Assembly (NCBI GenBank): GCA_036567745.1 | Contig: DATCTW010000018.1 | Coordinates: forward strand, 194,665-258,664 | DNA length: 64,000 bases | From: Ignavibacteria bacterium | GTDB lineage: Bacteria; Bacteroidota; Ignavibacteria; DATCTW01 | Direction: 5' to 3' | In this document: one piece after another, positions 11,723-50,718 of the stretch | Numbering within the stretch: the first letter of the stretch is position 1 | Layout: each line of letters begins with the position of its first letter | Program-made: the position numbers and the translations under genes | The notes under the pieces: model-generated | Seen by the model: only the letters and a program-made list of their open reading frames with translations | The model's database searches: none | Told to the model about the DNA's origin: nothing

Positions 11723-13069
11723 TTAAATTTTATTATACTTTTTAATATAAGCATTTATATCAAATTTATTTTTACAACCATTGTAGCTCATATATCTGAC
11801 CTTACCGTAAACTTGTTTACTAAACCATGCCCTATCGTGCACTCCTCCAATACTCCAGGCAATTCCGGTATAACCATTGGGATCTCTTCCATCAAGCTCA
11901 TATTTATCATTAAGGTATATAGCTATTTCCTGAGCTTCTTCAGGTGAATTTGTCCACTCCAGAATTTTTTTTGCCCAATACATTCTCATATAGCCATGCA
12001 TTTTACCTGTAGTAATCATCTCTATTTGTGCGGCATTCCATAAATTATCATGAGTTCTTGCTTCTTCAAAAGTTGATAACGAATAAACATATTCTCTTTT
12101 ATCTTTTCTATGCTCATCAAGTGTTTTTTTAGCCCATTCAGGGAAACCATTAAAATTGTCGTAATCATTACAATAATAACAATAATTATCACTCAACTCT
12201 TTTCTTACAATAAGCTCCTCTAAAAAAGAATCCTTTGATTTATTATTAATTGGTAATTTCTTTATCTCATAGGCAACTCTCTGCGAAGATATTTGCCCAA
12301 AATGCAGATACGGTGATAAATTTGATTGAGCATTTTCATTTGGATCATTTCGAAAATCATCATAATTTTTTAACTTATTAGAAATAAAGTCTGATAATAC
12401 TTTTTTTGCTTGCTTCTCTCCGGGTAAAATCCAATCTATTTTGCTAATAGATCTATTAACAGGTAAATGTTTTATTATCTCATCCCAAATATATTCTTCC
12501 TTTTCTAAACTTAAATTAAAAGGATGTTTTTTTAGTTCAGGATAGTCAGTCAAAAAGTTATCGATTTGTTTCATAATCTTTGGTCTTAAGGTATAAGCAG
12601 CAAATTCCTGCTTATCTGTAGCTACCCATATTGGTACAATATTATGTGCATCTACCTCATAGAATGGAATCGAAATTCTATCAATAATTTTTTGTTTCCA
12701 TTCCCTTTTTATTTTCAAAGGATCAAAATCAGTAATTAAAATTGATGCATCTACTTTATTAATAAATTTGATTATTTTTTCTTCAGGTAATCCTCGTAAT
12801 AAGAAAAAGGGGATGTTTTTCTTTTGCAATTCAATAGAGCATTCTTCTAATCCTTTTATCATGAAATCAAATTGCCTCAAACTTGCACCCAAAAAACGGC
12901 TAACAAGACAAAATACAACAGCTAATGGCCTTTTTTTACTTATAGCTAAATCCTGTGCAAATAGTAATGCCCAATTATCACTTACTCTCTGATCTCTACT
13001 CATCCAGTAAATAATTGGTCCATTGTTCTCTACTCCCTCTTTTAAAAGCCTTGCTCTTTTATTTAGCAT
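11723..13069 (-). CDS. phr: Deoxyribodipyrimidine (CPD) photolyase, class II
   Basis: ATG start. Class II photolyase signatures: 'ELIVRKELSDNY', 'THDNLWNAAQ', 'MHGYMRMYWAKKILEW', 'GYTGIAWSIGGVHDR'. Confidence 0.8.
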   Translation of the reverse strand: MLNKRARLLKEGVENNGPIIYWMSRDQRVSDNWALLFAQDLAISKKRPLAVVFCLVSRFLGASLRQFDFMIKGLEECSIELQKKNIPFFLLRGLPEEKIIKFINKVDASILITDFDPLKIKREWKQKIIDRISIPFYEVDAHNIVPIWVATDKQEFAAYTLRPKIMKQIDNFLTDYPELKKHPFNLSLEKEEYIWDEIIKHLPVNRSISKIDWILPGEKQAKKVLSDFISNKLKNYDDFRNDPNENAQSNLSPYLHFGQISSQRVAYEIKKLPINNKSKDSFLEELIVRKELSDNYCYYCNDYDNFNGFPEWAKKTLDEHRKDKREYVYSLSTFEEARTHDNLWNAAQIEMITTGKMHGYMRMYWAKKILEWTNSPEEAQEIAIYLNDKYELDGRDPNGYTGIAWSIGGVHDRAWFSKQVYGKVRYMSYNGCKNKFDINAYIKKYNKI

Positions 13070-13688
13070 AAAGCCCCCCTGAAACCTCTAGCCAGTCTGC
13101 AATATTTTCTACAGCTTTATTTATGTTATTATCAGAAATATCAATTGTAATTTTATTTAATTTACTCTTAGCTACCAAATTTGTCATTATTTCCTGTTCT
13201 TTCACAAAAAGATCGAGATCATCATATTGTTTTGGGTTACCTGATATTTTCAGTCTTTCTTTTCTAGCTTCAACAAATGATTCTTTACTCCGATAGCAAA
13301 AAACTAATCTGAAACCCAAATCACACAATTTACATTCCAACCAATCAAAATTATAATCTTTATTATATTTCATCTTTTGATACATCATTGTAGATAGATG
13401 AAACCTATCTACAATCCATGAATAATATTTTTGAAGTTCGAATAGTTTTGCCCACGTTGCGTAAGTTTCCATTGCAAGATTTTCTTCCTCTGGTAAAAAA
13501 TTTATTAATCCTCTTCCCCACGGAATATTTGTAAAAGCACACCATTCCGCAGAAATAAGGGGTGAATGATATCTATATTTTCTTGGACCTACAATTCTAG
13601 GATGTTCATTTAATGCGAATGCAATATCTGTCTTGAAAGTTAATCGAGTACCTTCAAGTATAATTTTTGGACATAATTTTTTACCCAT
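13059..13688 (-). CDS. Hypothetical protein, co-transcribed with photolyase (overlaps the phr start by 11 bp)
   Basis: The track ORF starts at TTG (13787), and its N-terminal extension runs into the first repeat element. The internal ATG at 13688 is preceded by a GGAG RBS and gives MGKKLCPKIILEGT.... I recognise no family. Confidence 0.45.
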   Translation of the reverse strand: MGKKLCPKIILEGTRLTFKTDIAFALNEHPRIVGPRKYRYHSPLISAEWCAFTNIPWGRGLINFLPEEENLAMETYATWAKLFELQKYYSWIVDRFHLSTMMYQKMKYNKDYNFDWLECKLCDLGFRLVFCYRSKESFVEARKERLKISGNPKQYDDLDLFVKEQEIMTNLVAKSKLNKITIDISDNNINKAVENIADWLEVSGGLYAK

Positions 13689-13787
13689 TATACCTGCTCC
13701 ATTTATTAGAATAAATAAAAATAAATATCCTTTAAAATAGCAATTCAGATTATTATACATATAATTTTTTATGGTCAAATTTCTCAA

Positions 13788-14910
13788 GATACGTGTCAGG
13801 GCTACGCCCCTAAAACATTATTCTACAATTTTATCTACAAACATTTCGGTGCTACGCACCTTTTATTTTTACAAAACGGGAATGATTCGTTTGTATGAGG
13901 GGCAGAGCCCCTATATGTTTGTAGAAATGCAAACGAAATAATATAAAGCACCATAGGTGCGACATGTCTACAAACATTTCTGTGCTACGCACCTTTTTTT
14001 ACGAAACGGGAATGATACGGTTTGTATTAGGGGCAGAGCCCCGATATGTTTGTAGAAATGTGAATGAAAATAAATATAGCACCGTAGGTGCGACATGTCT
14101 ACAAACATTTCTATGCTACGCACCTTTTATTTTTACGAAACGGGAATACATTAACAACATTCAATTATATTTAGGGGCAGAGCCTCGATATGTCTGTAGA
14201 AATGTAAACGAAAACGTATCAAGCACCGTAGGTGCGATACGTTTCAGGGCTACGCCCCTAAAAAATCATTCTTGCTATTTTTCTACAAACATCTCGGTGC
14301 TATCGCACCTTATATTTTTACAAAACGGGAATGATACGGTTTGTATTAAGGGCAGAGCCCCGATATGTTTGTAGAAATATGAATTAAAACATATAAAGCA
14401 CCGTAGGTGCGACACGTAAATAAACGTGTCAACCATCTTATCTACAAACATTTCGGTGCTATCGCACCTTATATTTTTACGAAACGTGAATGATTCGGTT
14501 GTATTAGGGGCAGAGCCCTGATATGTCTGTAGAAATGCAAACGAAAACAGATAAAGCACCGTAGGTGCGACACGTATCAGGGCTACGCCCCTAAAAAATC
14601 ATTCTTACCATTTTATCTACAAACATTTCGGTGCTATCGCACCTTTTTTATTTACAAAACGTGAATGATTCAGTTGTATTAGGGGCAGAGCCCCGATATG
14701 TTTGTAGAAATATGAATTAAAACATATAAAGCACCGTAGGTGCGACACGTAAATAAACGTGTCAACCATCTTATCTACAAACATCTCGGTGCTATCGCAC
14801 CTTTTTTATTTACAAAACGTGAATGATTCGGTTGTATTAGGGGCAGAGCCCCGATATGTTTGTAGAAATGTGAATGAAAACAGATAAAGCACCGTAGGTG
14901 CGACACGTAT
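13788..14910 (+). repeat. Tandem array (array 1) of about 7 copies of a hairpin-dense repeat of about 130 bp, with two kinds of short palindromic linkers
   Basis: Unit consensus: CTACAAACATTTCGGTGCTAYCGCACC-TTTTATTTTTACRAAACGKGAATGATWCGGTTTGTATTA-GGGGCAGAGCCCCGATATGTTTGTAG-AAATRTGAATKAAAACAKATAA-AGCACCGTAGGTGCGACAYGT. Each unit contains GC-rich 5-bp stems with 3-nt loops (GGTGC-TAC-GCACC, GGGGC-AGA-GCCCC, GCACC-GTA-GGTGC). A longer inverted repeat CTACAAACAT...ATGTTTGTAG frames the central hairpin. Linkers are 'TCAGGGCTACGCCCCTAAAAAATCATTCTT...' or 'AAATAAACGTGTCAACCATCTTAT', where GACACG-TAAATAAA-CGTGTC is itself a hairpin. Units 3-4 plus linkers are re-duplicated as units 5-6 plus linkers, giving a higher-order repeat of about 300 bp. 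Confidence 0.9.
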
Positions 14911-14924
14911 ATTTTATTGATAAA

Positions 14925-14943
14925 TTTGACAAAATGTGTCAAA
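14925..14943. promoter_or_regulatory. Perfect inverted repeat TTTGACA-AAATG-TGTCAAA, a candidate operator or promoter element upstream of the DUF4373 gene
   Basis: It is seen directly in the sequence, 65 bp upstream of the ATG at 15008. TTGACA also matches a -35 hexamer. Confidence 0.4.
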
Positions 14944-15007
14944 CAAGATAAGAATTTATTTTTTATTTTATGCTCTGGTAAAATAAAAAAATATTACGGA
15001 GGGGATT

Positions 15008-16234
15008 ATGCAATATTTTTCTCATAAAGTTGAATCTAGAAGAGATGAAAAGATAGATGCACTTATAGAAGAGTTTGGGGCAGAAGGTTATGCTGTATGG
15101 TTTGCTTTGCTTGAGGAGATATCACAGGAACAGAAGAACTTGTATATGTTATTTGTTTCAAGAAGATGGCTTGATACTTTCTCTATTTCCTTGAAAATGA
15201 GGAAATCTAAGGTAAGAAAAATATTAGATAGATTAGCAAACTTTGATATGATTGATTATGATTTGTATCAAGAAGGTATTATATTTTCACAAAAATTTAT
15301 TAAGATTCAACGAAGTTATATACAAAAAATATTCAAAAATGGAAATAATTCTGTAGAAAGTTGTATGGAAAGTGTAAAAAAGCTATTCAAAATAAAAAAA
15401 GGAAAATCAAATAAAACAATGACTTATGATGATTTTTTTCTGAAATTATGCAGAATTAGAGATGAAATAATCTATCCTATAAAGAAAAGAATAGAAAAGA
15501 ATAATAAAGAAATAGAAGATAATAATAATAATGCAAAATCTAATGAAAAAAAGGGAGATATTGAAACAAAAGAAACTACAGAAAAAGCGACAAAATATGA
15601 TAAAGGTAATAAACAAAAAATTTTGTTATTTCGGAAAAGTGATTGGCAATATTTAATATCAGAAAAGTTATACGAAGAAGTAAAGAAGCGAGATTCTACG
15701 TTTCCGAGTGTAAATTTACAGACATGGGCAAATACGTTTAACATGATATCGAAGGAGCGGAATATCGAAGAGATTGAAAAAGTTATGGAATACAGTCAAA
15801 AGCACCCGTTTTGGTCTGGAATAATAATCTCACCAAATGATTTATGGAATAATTTTGCAAAGATAAAACAAGCGATGATAAATAACACAGAGAAATCAAC
15901 ATATAGTTATGAAGAGATGCAACTTGCGATGATGAAGCAGAAAAGAAGCAAGAATGATTTTATTGCATGTATTGATGAAAAAGGTGAAATAATTTACTGG
16001 GATAAAAGTAAAGGTAACTGCCCATACAGGATATATGAACAGAAGGAAAATATCGAAGCAGTAATAGACAATGTGAAAGAAAATAAATCAATGGTGTGGA
16101 ATATTTCAAAACAAGGAATAAAATTACCTGAAGATTGGCACTATAGAGAGATAATACATGGTAAAAAGGAATATCAATACTCCGGTTTAAAAATAACCTT
16201 CGATTCCCCTTTTGCAGATGATAATCATATTTAA
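15008..16234 (+). CDS. DUF4373 (Lin1244/Lin1753-like N-terminal domain) protein; replication-initiator-like protein typical of phage and plasmid replication modules
   Basis: ATG start with a GGAGGGG RBS. The N-terminus 'MQYFSHKVESRRDEKIDALIEEFGAEGYAVWFALLEEI' matches the DUF4373 signature (YFSHD...D.KI..L....G..GYG.Y..LLE.I). There is a low-complexity K/E/N-rich central linker. Confidence 0.55.
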   Translation: MQYFSHKVESRRDEKIDALIEEFGAEGYAVWFALLEEISQEQKNLYMLFVSRRWLDTFSISLKMRKSKVRKILDRLANFDMIDYDLYQEGIIFSQKFIKIQRSYIQKIFKNGNNSVESCMESVKKLFKIKKGKSNKTMTYDDFFLKLCRIRDEIIYPIKKRIEKNNKEIEDNNNNAKSNEKKGDIETKETTEKATKYDKGNKQKILLFRKSDWQYLISEKLYEEVKKRDSTFPSVNLQTWANTFNMISKERNIEEIEKVMEYSQKHPFWSGIIISPNDLWNNFAKIKQAMINNTEKSTYSYEEMQLAMMKQKRSKNDFIACIDEKGEIIYWDKSKGNCPYRIYEQKENIEAVIDNVKENKSMVWNISKQGIKLPEDWHYREIIHGKKEYQYSGLKITFDSPFADDNHI

Positions 16235-21895: not shown

Positions 21896-23350
21896 ATGAG
21901 TGACGAACAAACATTAATAGAATTAGTTAAAAACTCTCAAGTAAACAGAAATATTATTTACACACGTATAACACACCCATTTACTGGTAAAAAATTACCC
22001 CAAAGAACATTCTTTGTTTTATTAAGAAAATATGCGACCCAATTTTTAAGTCAAGGAGCTGAACCAAGAATGATTGGGCTTGCTGGTTTACGTGGCACAG
22101 GTAAAACAACACTTTTGTGGCAAATAGCAGAAGAAATTTTCAATAAAAAATATCGCGTCTATTTTTTTAATGTTAATTCAATTATTCAATCCGGTTATAA
22201 CTTACACATAGCATTAGAAGCTTTTCAAAAATACGTTCTACAAAAAAGATTCAGAGAGTATACCAATCCAATTGTACTACTTTTCGATGAGGTTCACGAT
22301 GATAAAGATTGGGCAAAAACTTTAAAAATACTATATGATGAAGCACGAACAGCTTTTATTATTTGTACAGGTTCTTCAGCATTGCTCTTAAATCAAACTG
22401 CGGATTTAGCACGTAGAATGAAAATCGAAAAAGTATATCCCTTCAGATTTAACGAGTTCATCAGAGCTAAAAGTTTTTTTGAAAACAACAAACAAATTCT
22501 TCCTGAAAAAAATGTTTCAAATGACTTGAAGAATATTTTATTTTATAGTGATAACATCATAAGCCTTCAAGAAAATTTGAAAAATGTTACTCAAAGAATA
22601 AATAAATATTTGTTGAATATAGAAGAACGAATCATAAAAAATAATAATAAAATAGATTTGGTAGAAGAGTATATAAAATATCATAATATCCCTGGCTATA
22701 TTCTATACAAAGAAAAACTCCAAATATTAGAAAGCATTTTGTCTCTTTTTGAAAGGATTATTTACGAAGATGTACCTAAGTATAATTCTAAAATAGTAGT
22801 ATCTGGAGAAAAAATAAAAAAATTACTTAACCAACTAGCTATTTCTGATGTAATAAACGTTGATACAATTTCAAAAAAAACAGGGATTAAAAGAGATGAA
22901 TTAGATTTAATTTTGGATTTACTGGATAAGGCAGAAGTATTGAATGTTCTAAATGTATATGGAGGTGCTGAAACTCGCATTTGGAAAAATAAAAAAGCAT
23001 TTTTTATGTCCCCTTCCTTGCGGCTAGCTTTACTTTCTCAAATATACAATATAAATATTCCTGAAATGTACGAAAGTAAATTATATGAAGATATTGTTAT
23101 AATGTATTTAAGAAAAACTTTAAATAACAATATATTTTTTTCATTTAAACAAGAGAATAAAAATCCAGATTTTATTATCGAAACTATAGATAAACCTATT
23201 GCTCTTGAAGTTGGGAAGGGAAAAACAAATACAAGCCAATTATTAAACATTGATACACGTTATGGAATTTTAGTTACAAATGGTATCACTGATTATGCAA
23301 TAAAGAATAATGTTTTATTACTACCTTTTAATTGGTTTTTATTATTATAA
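21896..23350 (+). CDS. AAA+ ATPase with a C-terminal DUF4143 domain (AAA_14 family ATP-binding protein)
   Basis: Walker A 'GLRGTGKTTLLWQIAEE' and Walker B 'VLLFDEVHD'. Length about 480 aa. Confidence 0.55.
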   Translation: MSDEQTLIELVKNSQVNRNIIYTRITHPFTGKKLPQRTFFVLLRKYATQFLSQGAEPRMIGLAGLRGTGKTTLLWQIAEEIFNKKYRVYFFNVNSIIQSGYNLHIALEAFQKYVLQKRFREYTNPIVLLFDEVHDDKDWAKTLKILYDEARTAFIICTGSSALLLNQTADLARRMKIEKVYPFRFNEFIRAKSFFENNKQILPEKNVSNDLKNILFYSDNIISLQENLKNVTQRINKYLLNIEERIIKNNNKIDLVEEYIKYHNIPGYILYKEKLQILESILSLFERIIYEDVPKYNSKIVVSGEKIKKLLNQLAISDVINVDTISKKTGIKRDELDLILDLLDKAEVLNVLNVYGGAETRIWKNKKAFFMSPSLRLALLSQIYNINIPEMYESKLYEDIVIMYLRKTLNNNIFFSFKQENKNPDFIIETIDKPIALEVGKGKTNTSQLLNIDTRYGILVTNGITDYAIKNNVLLLPFNWFLLL

Positions 23351-42253: not shown

Positions 42254-45200
42254 TTACAAATCTATTCTTACACCTAATAACACTCTTCTTGGATTCAAGA
42301 AAAGAGGAGCCTGCCACCAACCGATATCAATATGAGATTTATCCCATTCACCCCATTTATCATCACCTTTTTTATCTCCTTCATTAAATGGTAGTTTTAA
42401 AGATGATTTGTAATTATCCAGCTGATTTCTAGTCATATTTCCAACTTCAAGCCTTTTTTGATTTAATAAATTTTGAACAGTTAAAACTACCTCTACATTA
42501 TAACCAGTAAACTTGAACAACTTTGAAGCTCTCATATCGAGATTAGAATAATCCACTATATCTAACCATTGTTGTTTTTTGATATCAGATTCTTGAGGAT
42601 TCCATAACATCTCTCCTCCATCCTGCCATTTGAAAAGGAAATTGACATAAATATCACCTAAAATATTCATATCAAAAAGTTTTGGACCCCAATCTGAAGG
42701 AGTTCTTAGATTTACATTTATATGAGCTCTGGGTAATGGTATTGTAGTAGTTAAATTAGCAGATCTTCTTTCATCAGATGCTTCAAGTTTATTTTCATAT
42801 ATTTTCTGTAAACCACTCTGGCCATAACTCTGTAACATATAATCATAGTTTGCCCAAAATGTAATCCATTTTCCAAAAGTTCTTTCAAATCTTAACTCTA
42901 CACCTCTTACATCTTTATATTTATCAGGAACGTAAGTTGTTACAATATTATCATGATAATAATTTATATAACTCTGACTGAGTGGTTGGTTACGAAAATC
43001 TTTATAATAGAATGCAACGTTAAATAGAAAGTTTTCTAAAAATTGCTGTTCATAACCAAATTCATAAGAAACAGTCCTTCCCATGCTTAAATTTGGATTA
43101 GGCAAAGTAACGGCTGAAGGATATACATTTAAATTATATAAAAATGATACAGGTGCTCTTTGATAAAAATGACCATAATTAAAATAAAGTTTACTTTCAG
43201 TAGTAATTGGGAAAGAGACTGACAATCTTGGTGAAATTTGCGCCTGAAGCTTATTCTTTTCACGAGGCCAGTTTGGTGGGTTTTCGAGCATATCTTTGTA
43301 AATTTGCCACCTTTCATAAGAGCCCCATCCACCAGGCAAATTCATATAAACCTTATTATAAAAATCAGAATAACTTTGATCAGGTGGATTAGTTACAATA
43401 AATCCCTTTTTATTTGGATCAAAAATATCAAGCCTAACACCAGCATTTGCTATCATTCCTTCAAATTCAATTTTATCTTGTAAGTATGCACCTAATTCAA
43501 TAGGTGTTACTTTATAATATTGCCAGGTATCTGTTGTCCACATTCTTTCTGATTGCAACCATGTACCACCATAAGTATATAGATAAGTGAGTTTGGCTGA
43601 GATACCTGCTTCAAATTGATTATGTTCACCAAGCTGAGAAGTAAAATCACTACTCAATTGTACTGTCCATGAATATGAGGAGTCGTCTCTTTGGGTTCCC
43701 CCATATAACCAGAACATGTTTAACTCATCTGTTGCCCAATTAGTTGAAGCGTTAGGAGTGCCACCATTAGGAACATTTAAGAATCTATAACCACCAATTG
43801 TAATCCATGCATCAGGTTTTGTTGTATCTAAAGAAAATGGTCTTAACTCATGATCTGTATAACCAAAATGTAAATTCACAGTGTAAAAAGAACTTGCTGA
43901 AAGAGTATGTGTAAACTTCACACCTCCAATTATATATCTCTGATCATAATATTGCAATCTACTCTTATTGAACATTCGATAGAAATTATCGCTACCAATA
44001 AGTGCAGCTTGTCTTTTTACTGAGGGTTCTGAATTACTTATAAAATTAAAACTTGATGATGGATCAACTAAAGTACCACCGTAATTAGTAGCGCTACCTT
44101 CATTAAGAGATGATATCTTTGCATACATACCATCGACAGATAATCTCATATTCGGAGAAAGAACACTGGTTAGCTTTAATTGAGTATTCCAATCTATATA
44201 ACTATCTCTTGGACCAACTGGAAAAGCAAATTGTGAATTCTCATACTTAAACCCTAAAAGAAAAGTAGTATTCCTAAAATATTCACCAAGTAATGGTAAT
44301 TCACCCCCTGGCAATGGACCACTAAGAGATGTTTCTATATAAATATCGGGTTTTTTCCCATAAGAATATTGGGGATGTCGCAATTTCCATAATTGTAATT
44401 TTTGTTCTGGTGTAAGTTTTGCATCTTTTGGTAAATCAGGATAGTTACCTGTTGAGGGATCGTTCCAACCCTTAAATCCCCAAAACTCTGGAGGTACAGC
44501 CAAACTATCCTCTTTAGTCTTAATACCATTCATTGCATATTTTCCTGCAAACACCTGATAAATTGGCGATTCATTACTATATGGATCTGTTCCAAAAAAT
44601 TTCTTTTTTGCAGTTGGTGTAATATCAACTTTTAGAGCAAAGTTATATTTATCTCTATTTCCTTCTTTTGTAACAACATTCAACAAACCCGATTGTATAC
44701 CACCATACTTAGCTTGAAAGCCACCTGTTAGAACTTGTAATTCCTGTATGGTTGTTGAGTTAAGAGATAAATATGAATTTTCACTTCTAGGATCTTGAAG
44801 AGAAATACCTTCAATACGAATGTCTGTTTCACGAATAGCGCCACCTCTAACACTAAGTCCATGCCCTTCGTTATTATCAACTAATTCAATACCCTTCAAA
44901 TTTCCGACAAATTCATCGACTCTAACAATAGGCACTTCAGCAATACGAGCTGTTTGGATAACTTCTTGTGTTGAGGCAACATCTGGTTTAATTACTTCTC
45001 TCTCATAAGTAACAACAATTGCATCCATTTGAACAGATGATGGAGTTAACTTAATATTAAGAGTAATGGTTCTGTCTGCATCAACTTGCACTTTTGCTTT
45101 AGTGTAAGTAGAATAGCCCACCATACTTGCCTTAACATTATAAAATCCTGGTGGCACATTAAGAATCGCAAAATATCCGTTTTCATTTGTAACAGCACCC

Positions 45201-45400
45201 AACTTTGGATTTTGAGCGTAAGGGTGTCCAGAAACCCAAACTGTATCAATCATTACGGTTACACCAATAAGTGGTTCATTTGTTTGGGAATCAGTTACTC
45301 TTCCGGAAATTTTGCCATTCCCAGAGTAAAGCAATTCAGGAAATAATAATGAAATAAAGGAAAGTAATAACAGGCAATAAAAGAAGTAAAACTTCTTCAT
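42254..45400 (-). CDS. TonB-dependent outer-membrane receptor (SusC/RagA-like) with an N-terminal carboxypeptidase-regulatory-like domain
   Basis: The track start is TTG (45412), and the ATG at 45400 is preceded by GGAGG. The CarbopepD_reg block reads 'GKISGRVTDSQTNEPLIGVTVMI...GYFAILNVPPGFYNVKASMVGYS'. A plug-like region ('LSVRGGAIRETDIRIEGISLQDP') is followed by a long beta-barrel. Confidence 0.7.
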   Translation of the reverse strand: MKKFYFFYCLLLLSFISLLFPELLYSGNGKISGRVTDSQTNEPLIGVTVMIDTVWVSGHPYAQNPKLGAVTNENGYFAILNVPPGFYNVKASMVGYSTYTKAKVQVDADRTITLNIKLTPSSVQMDAIVVTYEREVIKPDVASTQEVIQTARIAEVPIVRVDEFVGNLKGIELVDNNEGHGLSVRGGAIRETDIRIEGISLQDPRSENSYLSLNSTTIQELQVLTGGFQAKYGGIQSGLLNVVTKEGNRDKYNFALKVDITPTAKKKFFGTDPYSNESPIYQVFAGKYAMNGIKTKEDSLAVPPEFWGFKGWNDPSTGNYPDLPKDAKLTPEQKLQLWKLRHPQYSYGKKPDIYIETSLSGPLPGGELPLLGEYFRNTTFLLGFKYENSQFAFPVGPRDSYIDWNTQLKLTSVLSPNMRLSVDGMYAKISSLNEGSATNYGGTLVDPSSSFNFISNSEPSVKRQAALIGSDNFYRMFNKSRLQYYDQRYIIGGVKFTHTLSASSFYTVNLHFGYTDHELRPFSLDTTKPDAWITIGGYRFLNVPNGGTPNASTNWATDELNMFWLYGGTQRDDSSYSWTVQLSSDFTSQLGEHNQFEAGISAKLTYLYTYGGTWLQSERMWTTDTWQYYKVTPIELGAYLQDKIEFEGMIANAGVRLDIFDPNKKGFIVTNPPDQSYSDFYNKVYMNLPGGWGSYERWQIYKDMLENPPNWPREKNKLQAQISPRLSVSFPITTESKLYFNYGHFYQRAPVSFLYNLNVYPSAVTLPNPNLSMGRTVSYEFGYEQQFLENFLFNVAFYYKDFRNQPLSQSYINYYHDNIVTTYVPDKYKDVRGVELRFERTFGKWITFWANYDYMLQSYGQSGLQKIYENKLEASDERRSANLTTTIPLPRAHINVNLRTPSDWGPKLFDMNILGDIYVNFLFKWQDGGEMLWNPQESDIKKQQWLDIVDYSNLDMRASKLFKFTGYNVEVVLTVQNLLNQKRLEVGNMTRNQLDNYKSSLKLPFNEGDKKGDDKWGEWDKSHIDIGWWQAPLFLNPRRVLLGVRIDL

Positions 45401-45733
45401 AAAAACCTCCAATAAATGACCAAATATTCAAAATTATTTTTTCTGAAGAGAAAGAGGACTGCGAAAAAGAGGTTTTTCCTTTGCCTTAATAAAAAACCGG
45501 TATTGTATTTCTTGACGGCTTTGGATCGCGAACACCGCACATCCTTTTTCCCTAAAGGGAAGCATATTTGCTAGAAAGTATGAAGTATGGAATACCCATC
45601 ACTCATGCTTCCGTTGTGAAGGTAATAAAAAAAAATTCTTTTGTCAAGTAAAAAAACAAATTTTTTTATTTATAATTTTTTTAGAATTTTTCCGATTGCT
45701 TTATTTACATGGTACCCGGAAGAATTAATTATT

Positions 45734-46243
45734 CAAACATATCGGGGCTCTGCCCCTCACAATAATTAAAACATCTAGTTTTGTAAATACGAAAAGGTGC
45801 GTAGCACCAAAATGTATATTAACATGTCGCACCTACGGTGCTTGATATTTTTATTGTGTCATTTTCTACAAACATATCGGGGCTCTGCCCCTTACTATAA
45901 TTGAAACATCTTGTTTTGTAAATACGAAAAGGTGCGTAGCACCGAAATGTTTGTAGAATTATGATTAGATAAATGTTTAAGGGGCGTAGCCCTGATATGT
46001 ATATTAACATGTCGCACCTACGGTGCTTTAAATTTTTATTGTGTTGTTTTCTACAAACGTATCGGGGCTCTGCCCCTAAGGTATATGAAATGGCCTCGAT
46101 ACATTTGCATTACATTTATAATACCAAACAAAAAGGTGCGTAGCACCGAAATGTTTGTAGAATTATGATTAGATAAATGTTTAAGGGGCGTAGCCCTGGT
46201 ATGTATATTAAAGTTTTTCTACAAACGTATCGGGGCTCTGCCG
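45734..46243 (-). repeat. Tandem array (array 2) of about 4 copies of the same structured repeat family as array 1, in inverted orientation
   Basis: It contains the reverse complements of the array-1 motifs: ATATCGGGGCTCTGCCCC (= GGGGCAGAGCCCCGATAT), GGTGCGTAGCACCGAAATGTTTGTAG and ACATGTCGCACCTACGGTGCTT. The central segment differs from array 1 (TAGATGTTTTAATTATTGTGA in place of GGGAATGATACGGTTTGTATTA), so the two arrays are diverged sub-families. Confidence 0.85.
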
Positions 46244-46293
46244 TTAAATGTAATTGAACGGTAAGAAAGTAGCTGAAACAACCACTTATTATT

Positions 46294-49200
46294 TTATTCA
46301 CAACGTTTATTTAAAATATTATATACTACTTCAGATACTTTTGATAAATCAAGAGGTTTATCTAAAATATGGGAAAAACCAACAGAATATATATTTTTAT
46401 CCTGATAGTAACCAGACATTGCAACAATAGGAATATCTTTACATATTTTTTTGACCTCTGTGCACAGTTCTATTCCTGTCATTTCTGGCATAGTAATATC
46501 AGTAATAATTAAATCAAATTTTTCATCTGTAATTAATTTTAAAGCATCTAGACCGTTTTGAGCATTTTTTACTATATAATTTAAATCATCCAGATACTCT
46601 GTTAGCATAAATCTTATGCCCTCATCATCTTCAACAATTAGTATTTTCTGATTATTGCCAATAAATAATTCTCTTCTATCTTCATCTAAACTTTTATCTG
46701 AAGAATCTATAACAATAGGAAAATATATTTTGAATTCTGTGCCTTTACCTAATTCTGTATATAAATTAATAAATGCATCATTTTTATTAATATTATTTAA
46801 CACAATAGATAAACCAAGCCCTGTTCCTTTTCCTATTTCTTTAGTTGTAAAGAAAGGATCAAAAATTTTATCAATTATTTCAAGAGGAATTCCGCTTCCA
46901 CTATCCTTAATAACTAAAAGAGCATATTTACCGGGTTTCATAATTCCATTTTTTGTAATAACATCATAGGAAATATTTATTTCATCAGTTCTTATTTCAA
47001 TACTGCCTTTATTTTGAATGGCATCTCTTGAATTAATCACAAGATTCATTATTACCTGCTCAATTTGTGCAATATCAGCATTAATAATCAACTTTTTATG
47101 GTAAATATTTCTCTCTAATATAATATTTTCGGGAATAAGCCTTATCAACATTTTCCACAAATCATCAACAATTAAATTAAGGTCTATAATTTGTTTTACA
47201 ACCTGTTGCTTTTTACTGAAAGCTAAAATTTGTAGAATTATATTTTTCGCTTTTGAATTTGCCCCAACCAGAGCCTCAATGTATCTTTTATTATTTGTTT
47301 TACAATTCGAACATAATTTTCTTTCCAACAATTCAGTATTACCAATTAATACAGTTAATATATTATTTAAATCATGAGCTATGCCACCAGCTAATTGACC
47401 TACAACTGACATCTTTTCAGATTGAATAATTTGCTTTTCTAATTTTTTCCTTTCTGTAACATCCCTAATAAATCCTCCAACTCCAAATTTATTATCAATT
47501 AATTTTATTTTAAATTTTCTTACCTCAAATACTCTATCTCCAAAAGTTTCTTCAGTAATTACTACCCCATCACTTTCGACAGCTAGTTTATCACTATTAT
47601 AACATTGGTTTGCTTCTATTTCGGACATAAGTTCAAAATCATTTTTACCAATAATATCATCATAATTTCTGTTATATAAATCAACACCAGCATTATTAAT
47701 ATAAAGGTACCTAAAATCAGAATCTTTAAGAAGAACAATATCATTAGTTGAATTTAAAAATTCTCTGAATTGTCTTTCGCTTTCTTTTAAAGCCTTTTCT
47801 ACCTTTATTCTATATGTTACATCGTGAATAATTGAAAATAGATATTCTTTATCCTTAATAAAAATTGGTCCACTATAAACCTCAACATCTCTTAACTCAC
47901 TGTTAGAAAGCCTATGAGTAAAAAGTAAAAATCTCTTTTCTTTATTTTTGACAGCTAGCATTTCTTTTTTTATTACATCCTCAGTGGAAGCATTAATCTG
48001 ATAAATCTTCATTTTTTTCAATTCTTCTCTTGAATAACCATAAAAGGTACAAGCTGAAGGATTAGCATCTAAAATATCTCCGCTATCAGGATTAATCAAA
48101 AGCATAACTGAATAGTTGTTTTCAAAAATACTTCGATATCTTTCTTCACTTTCTTTTAAAGCACTCTCTGCAAATTTCTTTTCTGTAATATCTTCATAAG
48201 TACCAAGCACTCCGATTATTTTCCCTTCACTATCTTTTAATGGCACTTTACTTGTTCTTAGAAACCTTTTAGTACCATCAAAAATAATATGCTCTTCTTC
48301 ATAATTCAATTTTGGTGTATCATTCCCTATAACAAATTTATCATCTTCGATGAACATTTTAGCTACTTCTGGAATAACCGAATCATAATCACTTTTTCCA
48401 ATAATTTGCTCAGGGTCCTCAAATTTATAATCCTTAGCAAAATTTTTATTACATCCCAAATAGATAGAATTTCTATCTTTCCAAAATACTCTTACAGGTA
48501 TTGTATCTAATACCAATCTTAACATATTTTTCGATTCAAGTAATTCCATTTCAATTTTCTTTCTTTCAGTAATATCTCTTCCCACACCAATTATGCTGAT
48601 AACATTATTATGTTTATCTAATACAGCTTTATCTGCCCACCCAATCCATCTCCAGCCATCTTTTGTTAAAGCTCTTTGTTCAATATAACAAGAGTATGGA
48701 GGTTTATATAAATTTTTCATTTCCTCCAAAGTAAGTGCTAAATCATCAGGATGAACTAAAGGCATAAAAGTATTTCCTAAGAGCTCTTCTTCCTTTTTCC
48801 CAAACAATTGACAGTATGATGGACTTACAAATTCAAACTTTCCATTTGTATCAACTTTTACTAAAAGGTCTGTTTGATTATTTACAAGTAATCTGTATTT
48901 TTCCTCACTTTGTCTAAGTAATTCTTCAGCTTTATTTTTTTCTTGAATAAATCTTGCCTGTTGTACATTTTGTATAGCAAGTAAAGATAATTGCTTTGCT
49001 ATAAGGTGAAGAGCTTTACAGATCTTTTCAAATTGTTCTCGAGGCATTCGCGTAACTTTTTTTAGTTCTTCTCTAAACTTTTCTTTATCAGCACCAATAA
49101 CATCAGCATAATTTAATATAGTTTTTTCATCTATATTTTCATCTACTATTTGACCAATCAACCAATTAGCAATGTGATTATTTCCTACCATTATACTAGT

Positions 49201-50718
49201 TCCACCATCTAACAATCCACCACTAAGGCATGGTTGCATTTTATAACCATGAGGATTTATTTTACCAAGTTCTGCATCAGATTTATAGCAATTTTCTCTA
49301 CCTTTTTCAGTACCTCTAATAATATTTTCACAAAGATAAGAAAAATTACTTGGTTTTGTAATAGGTTTACCATCAGGATATGTTATAATTGATGCAACAC
49401 CAGTTGCAAAAGCAAAAGCATCCTGAATTTTCTGAATTTCCTCGATATCAAATATATCTTCAAATCTTATATCACCAATATCTGAAACAGGTTTAGTAAG
49501 TGCTACTAAACGATTTGCTAATTGTTCATTTAACCTTTTTATTTCATTTTCTGCTTTTTTCTTTTCGGTTATATCACGTACAATTGCATGAATATATTTT
49601 TTACCTTTCAGCTCAAAACAATTTAAGCTTACTTCAGTATCAAATAATGTTCCATCTCCACTTTTATGTTTCCATTCAAAATGTTGAGGAACGCCAGCTA
49701 TCGCCATTTCAACTAATTCTTTTCCTTTTTCAGCTGATTTTCTCCCATCTTCCTGGTATTCAGGTGAAAAAGTAAATGGATTAGAACCAATCATTTTTTC
49801 TTTTGAAGTTCTAAAAATTTTTGTAGCTGCTGTATTACAATCAACAAACACAATATCATCCATTATTAAAATTCCATCATCAGCAGATTCAAACAAAATT
49901 CTAAATTTTTCTTCGTTTTCCCTTAAAGAATTTTCTAATTCAATATGTTGAGTAACGTCATTTGCAACAGCATAAATTTTATCATTAATTGGATAAGAGT
50001 TCCACTCTATCCATTTATATGTACCATTTTTACATCTATATCTATTTAGAAATTCCAAGACTATTTCCTGATTTTTCAAATTTTCTAAAGCTTTTAAAGT
50101 TGAAGGGAGATCATCTGGATGAACAAAATCCAAAAATACAGCACCATCTAACTCTTCTTTTGAATAACCAAGAACCTGTTCCCATAAAGGATTTACTCTG
50201 ATAAAACTGCCAGAAGTATCTGCAATACACAATAACTGTAAAGAGACATTAAAAAATCTTTCAAATTCTTCAGTCTTTTTTTCTAAATCCTTTAAATTTT
50301 TTTTCTCTTCGGTAATATCAATATTTATACCATAAGCTACAGGTTTTTCCAAAACTTTATTTAAGGGTGAAAACAAAGTACGATAATATTTTACTTCGCC
50401 ATTTTTAACAACAGAATTTTCAAAGGATAGAAACTCTCCTGACAAAGCCTTTTTGTTTGTTTGTTCCCATTCTTCTGCCATTAATTTATCATCTAAAAAA
50501 TCTTTGGGTGATTCCCCTATATGATAACCCCAATTTTTAATTGAATATGAGTTCTGTAATATATATTTACCCTCTGAATCTAATGCCCAAATCTCAAATG
50601 GAATTTTATCGAGTATAGCTTTATAAAAAATTTCTTTTTCCTGATATTCTTTAACAACTTTTTTTAAATTAGAAATTTCTTCTAAAAGCTCGTTATTGGA
50701 ACTTTTATTTTTATCCAT
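46294..50718 (-). CDS. Hybrid sensor histidine kinase/response regulator with multiple PAS/PAC domains (1474 aa)
   Basis: ATG start. At least 6 PAS-like modules are present. HisKA reads '[21 protein letters not shown]'. HATPase reads '[10 protein letters not shown]...DSGSGIP...GTGLGLS'. The C-terminal REC reads '[14 protein letters not shown]...[17 protein letters not shown]'. Confidence 0.9.

Follow-up and report, generated by a model that had tools for sequence, protein, structure and literature searches.

A probably domesticated phage-type initiator-like gene beside a dispersed REP/BIME-like hairpin repeat family in an Ignavibacteria lineage

Within a 64,000-nt stretch of the genome of an Ignavibacteria bacterium (contig DATCTW010000018.1, positions 194,665 to 258,664; hereafter the window), a gene for a 408-aa protein with a DUF4373 domain (window 15008–16234, + strand) is preceded by a perfect palindrome (14925–14943) and by an array of repeats that separates it from a divergent gene for a 242-aa protein (array 1, 13788–14910, +). 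A preliminary description had likened this arrangement to an iteron-type origin beside its Rep gene. The explanation that we favor, with a probability of roughly three in four, is that an orphan, domesticated gene of the phage-type initiator-like kind, with a promoter and operator of its own, stands beside one cluster of a dispersed family of repeats. The family is similar in architecture to repetitive extragenic palindromic (REP) sequences and bacterial interspersed mosaic elements (BIMEs). Because the same repeats are dispersed to loci without any Rep gene, namely a second array in the window and 17 of 20 metagenome contigs, and because their units are not iteron-like, the iteron-and-Rep interpretation is not supported.

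The repeats of array 1 recur 31 kb away as four units in opposite orientation, recognized by module matches (array 2, 45727–46244, −). The window holds 11 copies of the 13-nt core GGGGCAGAGCCCC against 0.1 expected, and four of these lie in array 2 (45744–46244, minus strand) among the same modules as in array 1; hidden Markov models (HMMs) of four conserved blocks found no solo copies outside both arrays in the 64-kb window. Array 2 is flanked by a hybrid histidine kinase gene (46294–50718, assigned by reading its translation) and a TonB-dependent-receptor-like gene (42254–45412), and no DUF4373 or Rep-like gene was detected among the scanned flanking open reading frames (ORFs) of at least 120 aa (36.5–45.4 kb and 51–59.8 kb). 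Beyond the window, a 25-nt arm pattern, used to search JGI metagenome contigs, retrieved 20 of them, derived from activated sludge and comparable samples, and the DUF4373 gene is present on three (L008, L014, and L019). Samples in which the lineage occurs are that of L008 (UOWE01, activated sludge), ERZ778038, and SRR2059973. The repeats were found in ~12 unrelated gene contexts outside the window, always intergenic and in mixed orientation relative to the neighboring genes. They lie next to Sua5/TsaC (L009, L020, and L024), genes for cobalamin-pathway-like enzymes judged from their translations (L021), a divergent NDH-2/IMPDH region (L017), a heptosyltransferase gene (L011), and a weak portal-like ORF (L010), and they stand on both sides of a NUDIX gene (L016), a gene for a 2409-aa surface protein (L015), a Big_5 protein gene (L013), and a pair of ImmA and helix-turn-helix (HTH) genes (L018:768–2377 and L020:2–1605). 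Arrays thus seem to border small accessory gene islets. The last of these islets encodes an ImmA-like M78 peptidase, a putative HTH protein (recognized from the sequence, with no Pfam match), and a 238-aa protein.

Copy number differs between relatives, as the orthologous array 2 has four units in the window and at least six on contig L007, where the flanks are 92.5% identical. No match to the repeat core was found in GTDB representative genomes. All contigs of the set L001–L005, L008, L014, L019, and L029 end ~100–430 nt upstream of the DUF4373 gene, within the array or at its edge, and many repeat-bearing contigs also end inside arrays, which indicates that the repeat family systematically breaks short-read metagenome assemblies of this lineage.

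The 1.1 kb of direct repeats reported earlier to abut the gene was recovered as seven units that recur at periods of 131, 158, or 175 nt, together with a 333-nt super-repeat. Unit lengths range from 131 to 183 nt, which bears out the earlier remark that they are much longer than canonical iterons (17–22 bp). The units combine, as mosaics, four short GC hairpins that alternate in orientation: h4 (AGGGCTACGCCCC) and h1 (GGTGCTACGCACC, preceded by CTACAAACAT) are inverted, and h2 (GGGGCAGAGCCCC, then GATATGTTTGTAG) and h3 (GCACCGTAGGTGC, then GACAYG) are direct. A full cycle runs from h4 through CTACAAACAT-h1, a variable interior of 35–75 nt, h2-GATATGTTTGTAG, and an A-rich linker of ~20 nt to h3-GACAYG, and where h4 is dropped or replaced, the periods of 131 and 158 nt arise. 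Across 45 non-identical copies from many loci, the outer arms of ~30 nt, which include AGGGGCAGAGCCCCGATATGTTTGTAGA and TCTACAAACATTTCGGTGCTACGCACC, are almost invariant, and the interiors vary in an array-specific manner, as expected from local tandem duplication. The arms TCTACAAACATTTCGGTGCTACGCACCT and AGGGGCAGAGCCCCGATATGTTTGTAGA, separated by 35–75 nt, are 79%–82% complementary, and the HMM of armR also matches armL and h4 on the opposite strand, which identifies these as inverted, diverged copies. The four hairpin types are 13 nt long with stems of 4–5 bp; the stems are invariant in the 45 copies, and no covariation was detected among them. Repeat units fold much better than shuffled sequence (z = −4.7), and array 1 contains 16 terminator-like hairpins, on both strands, where 1.2 would be expected. 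Rfam searches at gathering and E-value thresholds returned only sub-threshold matches to plant microRNA precursors, reflecting the long hairpins. We also noted that the invariant arm GATATGTTTGTAG (window 13896–13928, and every h2 arm) contains TAnnTTTG, which we take to be the Bacteroidetes −7 promoter motif, and that a T-run follows each h1 hairpin; judging by these motifs, the repeat units could be small transcription units.

REP elements have been described as forming dimers (HH) 20–100 bp apart that are reiterated in tandem, as attenuating transcription and stabilizing mRNA, and as being defined by a GTAG or CGTC tetranucleotide directly beside the stem (PMC3733652). Like the REP, BIME, and REPIN clusters of Proteobacteria (E. 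coli BIMEs, Pseudomonas REPIN clusters, and GTAG-tagged REPs), the window repeats are short, GC-rich extragenic hairpins in an AT-rich genome, they are arranged in inverted pairs 35–75 nt apart with GTAG/CTAC outside and in tandem with linker DNA, and they share alternating hairpin subtypes, a copy number varying between relatives, and terminator-like properties. The outer ends of the pair invariably carry the tetranucleotide GTAG/CTAC, which is also found in the h1, h3, and h4 loops; however, at the outer ends it lies 9 nt from the stem rather than adjacent to it as in REPs, and the stems are at the short extreme. The repeats further differ from REPs in occurring in clusters only, without singletons in 64 kb, and in lacking a detectable REP-associated tyrosine transposase (RAYT): no Y1_Tnp domain, the Pfam profile of RAYT-type transposases, was matched in the scanned window ORFs or on the repeat-bearing contigs, which together cover ~100 kb of the lineage. 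The window repeats are also GTAG-type in a host of the FCB group, whereas a survey reported CGTC-type REPs only, and no GTAG-type, in Bacteroidetes/Chlorobi (PMC3733652).

The protein encoded next to array 1 has the two-domain architecture of phage initiators and replisome organizers according to Pfam, PHROG, and its predicted fold, so that the earlier label of a replication-initiator-like protein holds. The ORF is present as described, and the Pfam profile PF14297 (Lin1244_N, DUF4373) matched well above its gathering threshold (53.4 bits against a cutoff of 25, E = 4.5e-14), with residues 3–96 (15014–15295, +) aligned to positions 1–94 of the 95-position profile; this N-terminal domain is winged-helix-like and predicted to bind DNA, and it was also matched by 20 of 26 aligned relatives. 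A PHROG profile for a "replication initiation protein" matched residues 2–305 (3.9e-14), followed by those for a "DnaD-like helicase loader" (4.7e-10) and a "replisome organizer" (1.7e-8). Matches to PHROG 2562, 2514, and 4880 together span residues 2–305, and PHROG 2514, 4880, and 2357 mark a C-terminal helical domain of DnaD-like/replisome-organizer type at residues ~213–308 (15644–15931, +). No match was found in NCBIfam, PADLOC returned no defense-system match, and domain profile searches detected no nuclease, HUH, or recombinase domain in the protein. HMMER searches of 1.84 billion representative proteins yielded 629 relatives at E ≤ 1e-3, of which four only were at E < 1e-30, and a word-indexed search found only seven close homologs (88%–98% identity), indicating that the protein belongs to a large family and is itself lineage-restricted.

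An AlphaFold (AF2) model built from a 26-sequence alignment has a mean predicted local distance difference test (pLDDT) score of 82.6 and comprises a helical, winged-helix-like N-domain (pLDDT 87–97), a long helix, a disordered linker (residues 181–202), a helical C-domain (residues 213–310, pLDDT 92–97), and a beta-rich domain (residues 318–392). Searched with Foldseek, the model had no significant match in the PDB, where the weak top matches were MarR-type and MCM winged helices. Against the predicted viral structures of BFVD, it matched 13 phage proteins of 185–322 aa at E ≤ 1e-3, most over ~300 columns. Those with names are Lin1244_N-domain or replication proteins, and matches weaker than 1e-3 include proteins named "replication initiator" and "replisome organizer." At the sequence level, tblastn found no match to the protein in 50,697 phage records and two weak matches to its C-domain (residues 221–303) in plasmid records, both in "phage replisome organizer" genes; neither the protein nor the repeat arms matched viral contigs. 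The beta-rich C-terminal domain (~90 aa, residues ~315–400, 15950–16207, +), defined from the structure model, extends beyond the phage proteins matched by the model and had no Pfam match of its own. It weakly resembles the WD40-type blades of P0069, a 1659-aa TIR-NACHT-WD40 protein, in eight matched stretches.

The DUF4373 gene is kept by purifying selection. Its frame is intact in ten copies from two lineages, one of window type (98%–100% nucleotide identity) and one of sister type (~90%), and the ratio of nonsynonymous to synonymous divergence (dN/dS) between lineages is 0.12–0.14 at a dS of ~0.43. The 91 nt 5′ of the ATG, which cover the palindrome, the promoter hexamers, and the ribosome-binding site, differ at six positions between the lineages (93% identical) and are better conserved than the coding sequence. 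The palindrome described earlier, TTTGACA-N5-TGTCAAA (TTTGACAAAATGTGTCAAA, 14925–14943, strandless), was found exactly as claimed, beginning 14 nt after the end of array 1 and with its last base lying 65 nt ahead of the ATG. Four sequences from the two lineages carry it unchanged, zero changes in 19 nt not being significant alone. Such a palindrome is not unusual here, because the window contains 170 perfect 7+7 palindromes (spacer 0–10) against 110–187 in simulated sequence; one is present in 17% of all 100-nt stretches of the window. The TTGACA of the palindrome forms the −35 element of the best sigma-70-like match, TTGACA-18 nt-AAGAAT (14926–14955, +; 10 of 12 positions), and an alternative extended −10 element, TGGTAAAAT, lies at 14976–14984 (+) and reads TGGTATAAT in the sister lineage, both being consensus matches. 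The ribosome-binding site GGAGGGG (14998–15004, +), read from the sequence, is 3 nt ahead of the ATG. The gene is therefore probably expressed from its own promoter, through either the TTGACA-18-AAGAAT pair or the extended −10, and the palindrome may be regarded as a candidate operator at or just upstream of that promoter. It is plausible that the gene is autoregulated, possibly through the winged helix of its own protein.

Functional counterparts of the Lin1244_N/DnaD-like phage initiators include lambda O and SPP1 G38P, and lambda O has its origin inside the initiator gene. The window protein shares with phage initiators and replisome organizers the architecture of an N-terminal Lin1244_N domain and a C-terminal DnaD-like domain, but it differs from them in its added beta-rich domain and the lack of a phage BLAST match, and its gene is solitary in a housekeeping neighborhood, without helicase or loader and without internal iterons. 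By comparison, homologs with 24%–38% identity (P0008, P0009, P0010, P0015, and P0017) are encoded in tight co-directional operons of small genes, and no long repeat arrays occur beside these five. The gene for P0015 (31% identity, L110:1853–4341) overlaps the gene for a DnaB-type helicase at its start, within a co-directional operon headed by an HTH protein gene, and this locus is a bona fide replication module. The gene for P0010 (34% identity) contains about nine tandem 11-bp repeats, TCAATCCAGAT, in its linker-coding region (L028:477–584), and that for P0017 a 32-nt repeat in 2.4 copies at the same relative place (L111:498–575); by analogy with lambda O, these internal repeats look like origins inside the initiator gene. 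Several chromosomal genes labeled "DUF4373 domain-containing protein" are listed in transcriptome papers on B. thetaiotaomicron and B. fragilis, so chromosomal DUF4373 genes have already been recorded in Bacteroidetes; these stand-alone genes are likened to the window gene by annotation, not by sequence comparison.

Taken together with these comparisons, the course of events that we propose is as follows. The DUF4373 gene would descend from a replication initiator or replisome organizer of phage type, now standing alone in the chromosome, its replication-module partners lost, and retained by purifying selection, with the conserved palindrome overlapping or preceding its promoter and presumably serving as operator. 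Array 1 would be one cluster of a dispersed extragenic REP/BIME/REPIN-like family that occupies many intergenic regions of the lineage and presumably grows by local tandem duplication. Any effect on the gene would not go beyond that of stacked hairpins serving as weak terminators or insulators in both directions, and the array would not be an origin.

Several observations weigh against this proposal. The array upstream of the DUF4373 gene is also present in the sister lineage (L005, L014, and L019), and its adjacency to the gene holds in every case in both lineages. It is therefore at least as old as a dS of ~0.43 and more than a fleeting coincidence. As ~4 of ~50 window genes border an array, we estimate the probability of chance adjacency at ~5%–10% per gene. 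Finally, the window lineage has no close relative among GTDB representatives, and the view of its repeats and of any RAYT spans ~100 kb. In close relatives (89% identity), an array upstream of the gene is a matter of synteny. The junctions also differ between lineages. At the 5′ side, the window array ends with an h3 module and those of L005, L014, and L019 with a CTACAAACAT-h1 half-module, and homology between lineages begins ~10 nt before the palindrome. At the 3′ side, the sister lineage has either a glycosyltransferase gene, as in the window (L004), or a type IV Mrr restriction gene followed by nuoA (L002, L003, L005, and L019), the break falling inside the final four codons of the DUF4373 gene. 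The Mrr gene (L002:1424–2338) is of the type IV, methyl-directed kind (PADLOC mREase_IV, 2e-92). Given these differing junctions and contexts, palindrome, promoter, and gene together behave like a discrete ~1.3-kb block at a site prone to recombination, which fits the arrays bordering accessory genes and does not require a functional link. Photolyase matches in GTDB reached at best 64% identity, in metagenome-assembled genomes of Ignavibacterium/Ignavibacteriaceae, and a synteny search based on them found no DUF4373 homolog, repeats, or neighboring genes at any of 80 loci.

In iteron plasmid replicons such as pPS10, RK2, F, and P1, the initiator gene lies beside direct repeats and an inverted repeat lies at the promoter. 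The window resembles these in having an initiator-like gene by direct repeats and a promoter palindrome of the sort seen in autoregulated Rep genes, and array 1 could accordingly be imagined as an origin of giant iterons served by the DUF4373 protein as Rep, in a cryptic or satellite replicon or an integrated remnant of one. The adjacency kept in the sister lineage agrees with such a replicon, and the ~1.3-kb unit with its differing left junctions and two 3′ contexts (glycosyltransferase or Mrr-nuoA) hints at a discrete module. We nevertheless regard it as highly improbable, since at least a dozen loci, one of them in the window, carry these repeats without such a gene, and since the units are hairpin mosaics of alternating orientation, 6–8 times too long, dispersed, and not locus-specific, rather than phased direct repeats of 17–22 bp. 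Where this protein family has true iterons, they are short and placed within the gene (L028 and L111). Nor was a DNA unwinding element (DUE)/DnaA-box module, a par gene, or an extrachromosomal context like that of iteron plasmids seen in the region. A Pfam scan of 33 of the 40 window ORFs of at least 120 aa, including all near either array, found no integrase, capsid, helicase, partition, or mobilization/transfer gene, in agreement with the earlier remark that integrase, capsid, and transfer genes are absent nearby. Two checks that the preliminary description had recommended speak against the iteron reading: GC skew follows gene orientation with no switch at array 1, and the neighborhoods of the 24%–38% identical homologs are free of long arrays. 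Homologs thus occur without arrays and repeats without a DUF4373 gene, the two kinds of observation that the description had itself set against its reading. AT-richness is uninformative as a sign of a DUE in a genome of 29% GC, and the window shows no excess of DnaA-box-like sites (21 against 25 expected). One such site, TTATCTACA, occurs four times in array 1, but it is merely part of the unit and absent from array 2, and it was rejected as a candidate. No short iterons were found in or near the DUF4373 gene, where a weak A-rich 21-nt repeat (15486–15528) was the only repeat detected. A linker termed y, AAACGTGTCAACC, is private to the array adjacent to the DUF4373 gene and agrees with the palindrome's right arm in 11 of 13 positions, but this is at chance level (5 against 3.95 expected), and other arrays also have private variants. 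Of the three options offered by the preliminary description, coincidence comes closest, in that the adjacency is one of location, though the gene is kept and functional.

The remaining alternatives assign the gene or the array a different role. Tied to the DUF4373 gene, array 1 might act as an upstream transcriptional barrier or as tandem small-RNA units and so govern or shield the gene's expression, a proposal that draws on the TAnnTTTG-like motifs of the arms, the T-run after each h1 hairpin, the excess of terminator-like hairpins on both strands and the folding score, as well as on the location of array 1 between divergent genes and of array 2 between two co-directional ones, and on the attenuation of transcription and stabilization of mRNA reported for REPs (PMC3733652). 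We consider it unlikely because orientation to neighboring genes is mixed across loci, stems are only 4–5 bp and do not covary, Rfam offers no family beyond weak hairpin-type matches, and nothing in these features is specific to the DUF4373 gene. The protein might also act in trans as a partner for the entire repeat family, either as an analog of RAYT or as a nucleoid- or replication-linked binder of the arms. In favor of this are its standing as a lineage-restricted, single-copy predicted DNA-binding protein under purifying selection, its occurrence only in the same kinds of samples and lineages as the repeats, the position of its gene beside an array throughout both lineages, and the missing Y1_Tnp. 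Yet nuclease, HUH, and recombinase domains are missing from the protein, the repeats flank its gene on one side only, unlike in REPtrons, the half-site of the palindrome occurs in the repeats at chance frequency, co-distribution is trivial for any lineage-specific gene, and with only ~100 kb of the lineage seen, a real RAYT may lie elsewhere; we therefore judge this partnership quite improbable. A related idea, that a domesticated replisome-organizer-like protein recognizes the hairpin arms genome-wide and drives their replication-based tandem amplification or organizes them, with array 1 as a "home" cluster, appears very doubtful. Finally, a gene that is solitary, without partners, and without a phage relative by BLAST could be the non-functional leftover of a decaying prophage. 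This reading, which we find scarcely credible, is contradicted by the selection signal (dN/dS ~0.13 at dS ~0.43), seen along with an intact frame in ten sequences and a conserved promoter region and ribosome-binding site.

An iteron-Rep replicon of this kind, if real, would have represented an origin of a new type, and the evidence speaks against it; a repeat array beside an initiator-like gene is insufficient for calling an origin, and the dispersal of the repeats needs to be checked first. Under the explanation that we favor, of an orphan initiator-like gene beside one cluster of a dispersed family, the repeats represent a previously undescribed REP/BIME-like hairpin family in an AT-rich uncultured lineage that breaks short-read assemblies and borders accessory genes. 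The DUF4373 gene becomes a candidate case of domestication, as an orphan phage-type initiator under purifying selection with an added C-terminal domain. If the protein did bind the repeats as their cognate factor, the family would constitute a REP system without RAYT.

The DUF4373 gene is neighbored by a photolyase operon and by GT4 and SDR genes, and the scanned window ORFs encode housekeeping and envelope functions, among them proteins with type IX secretion sorting domains (Pfam), a sign of the FCB group of phyla. The divergent 242-aa ORF (13059–13787, −) overlaps the start of the photolyase gene by 11 nt; it had no Pfam match and only a faint PADLOC match, to PDC-M51B (0.006). Its true start, MGKK..., is likely near 13688, in which case array 1 fills a 1.3-kb intergenic region. 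Between array 2 and the TonB-dependent-receptor-like gene lies a stretch of ~300 untranslated nt with GC-richer segments (45413–45720, −), which matched nothing in Rfam, not even at a permissive threshold, and which, from its position and composition, could be a leader. Elsewhere in the window, an AAA_14/nSTAND-type ATPase gene (21896–23350, +) matches the PADLOC candidate defense family PDC-S01 (5e-23).

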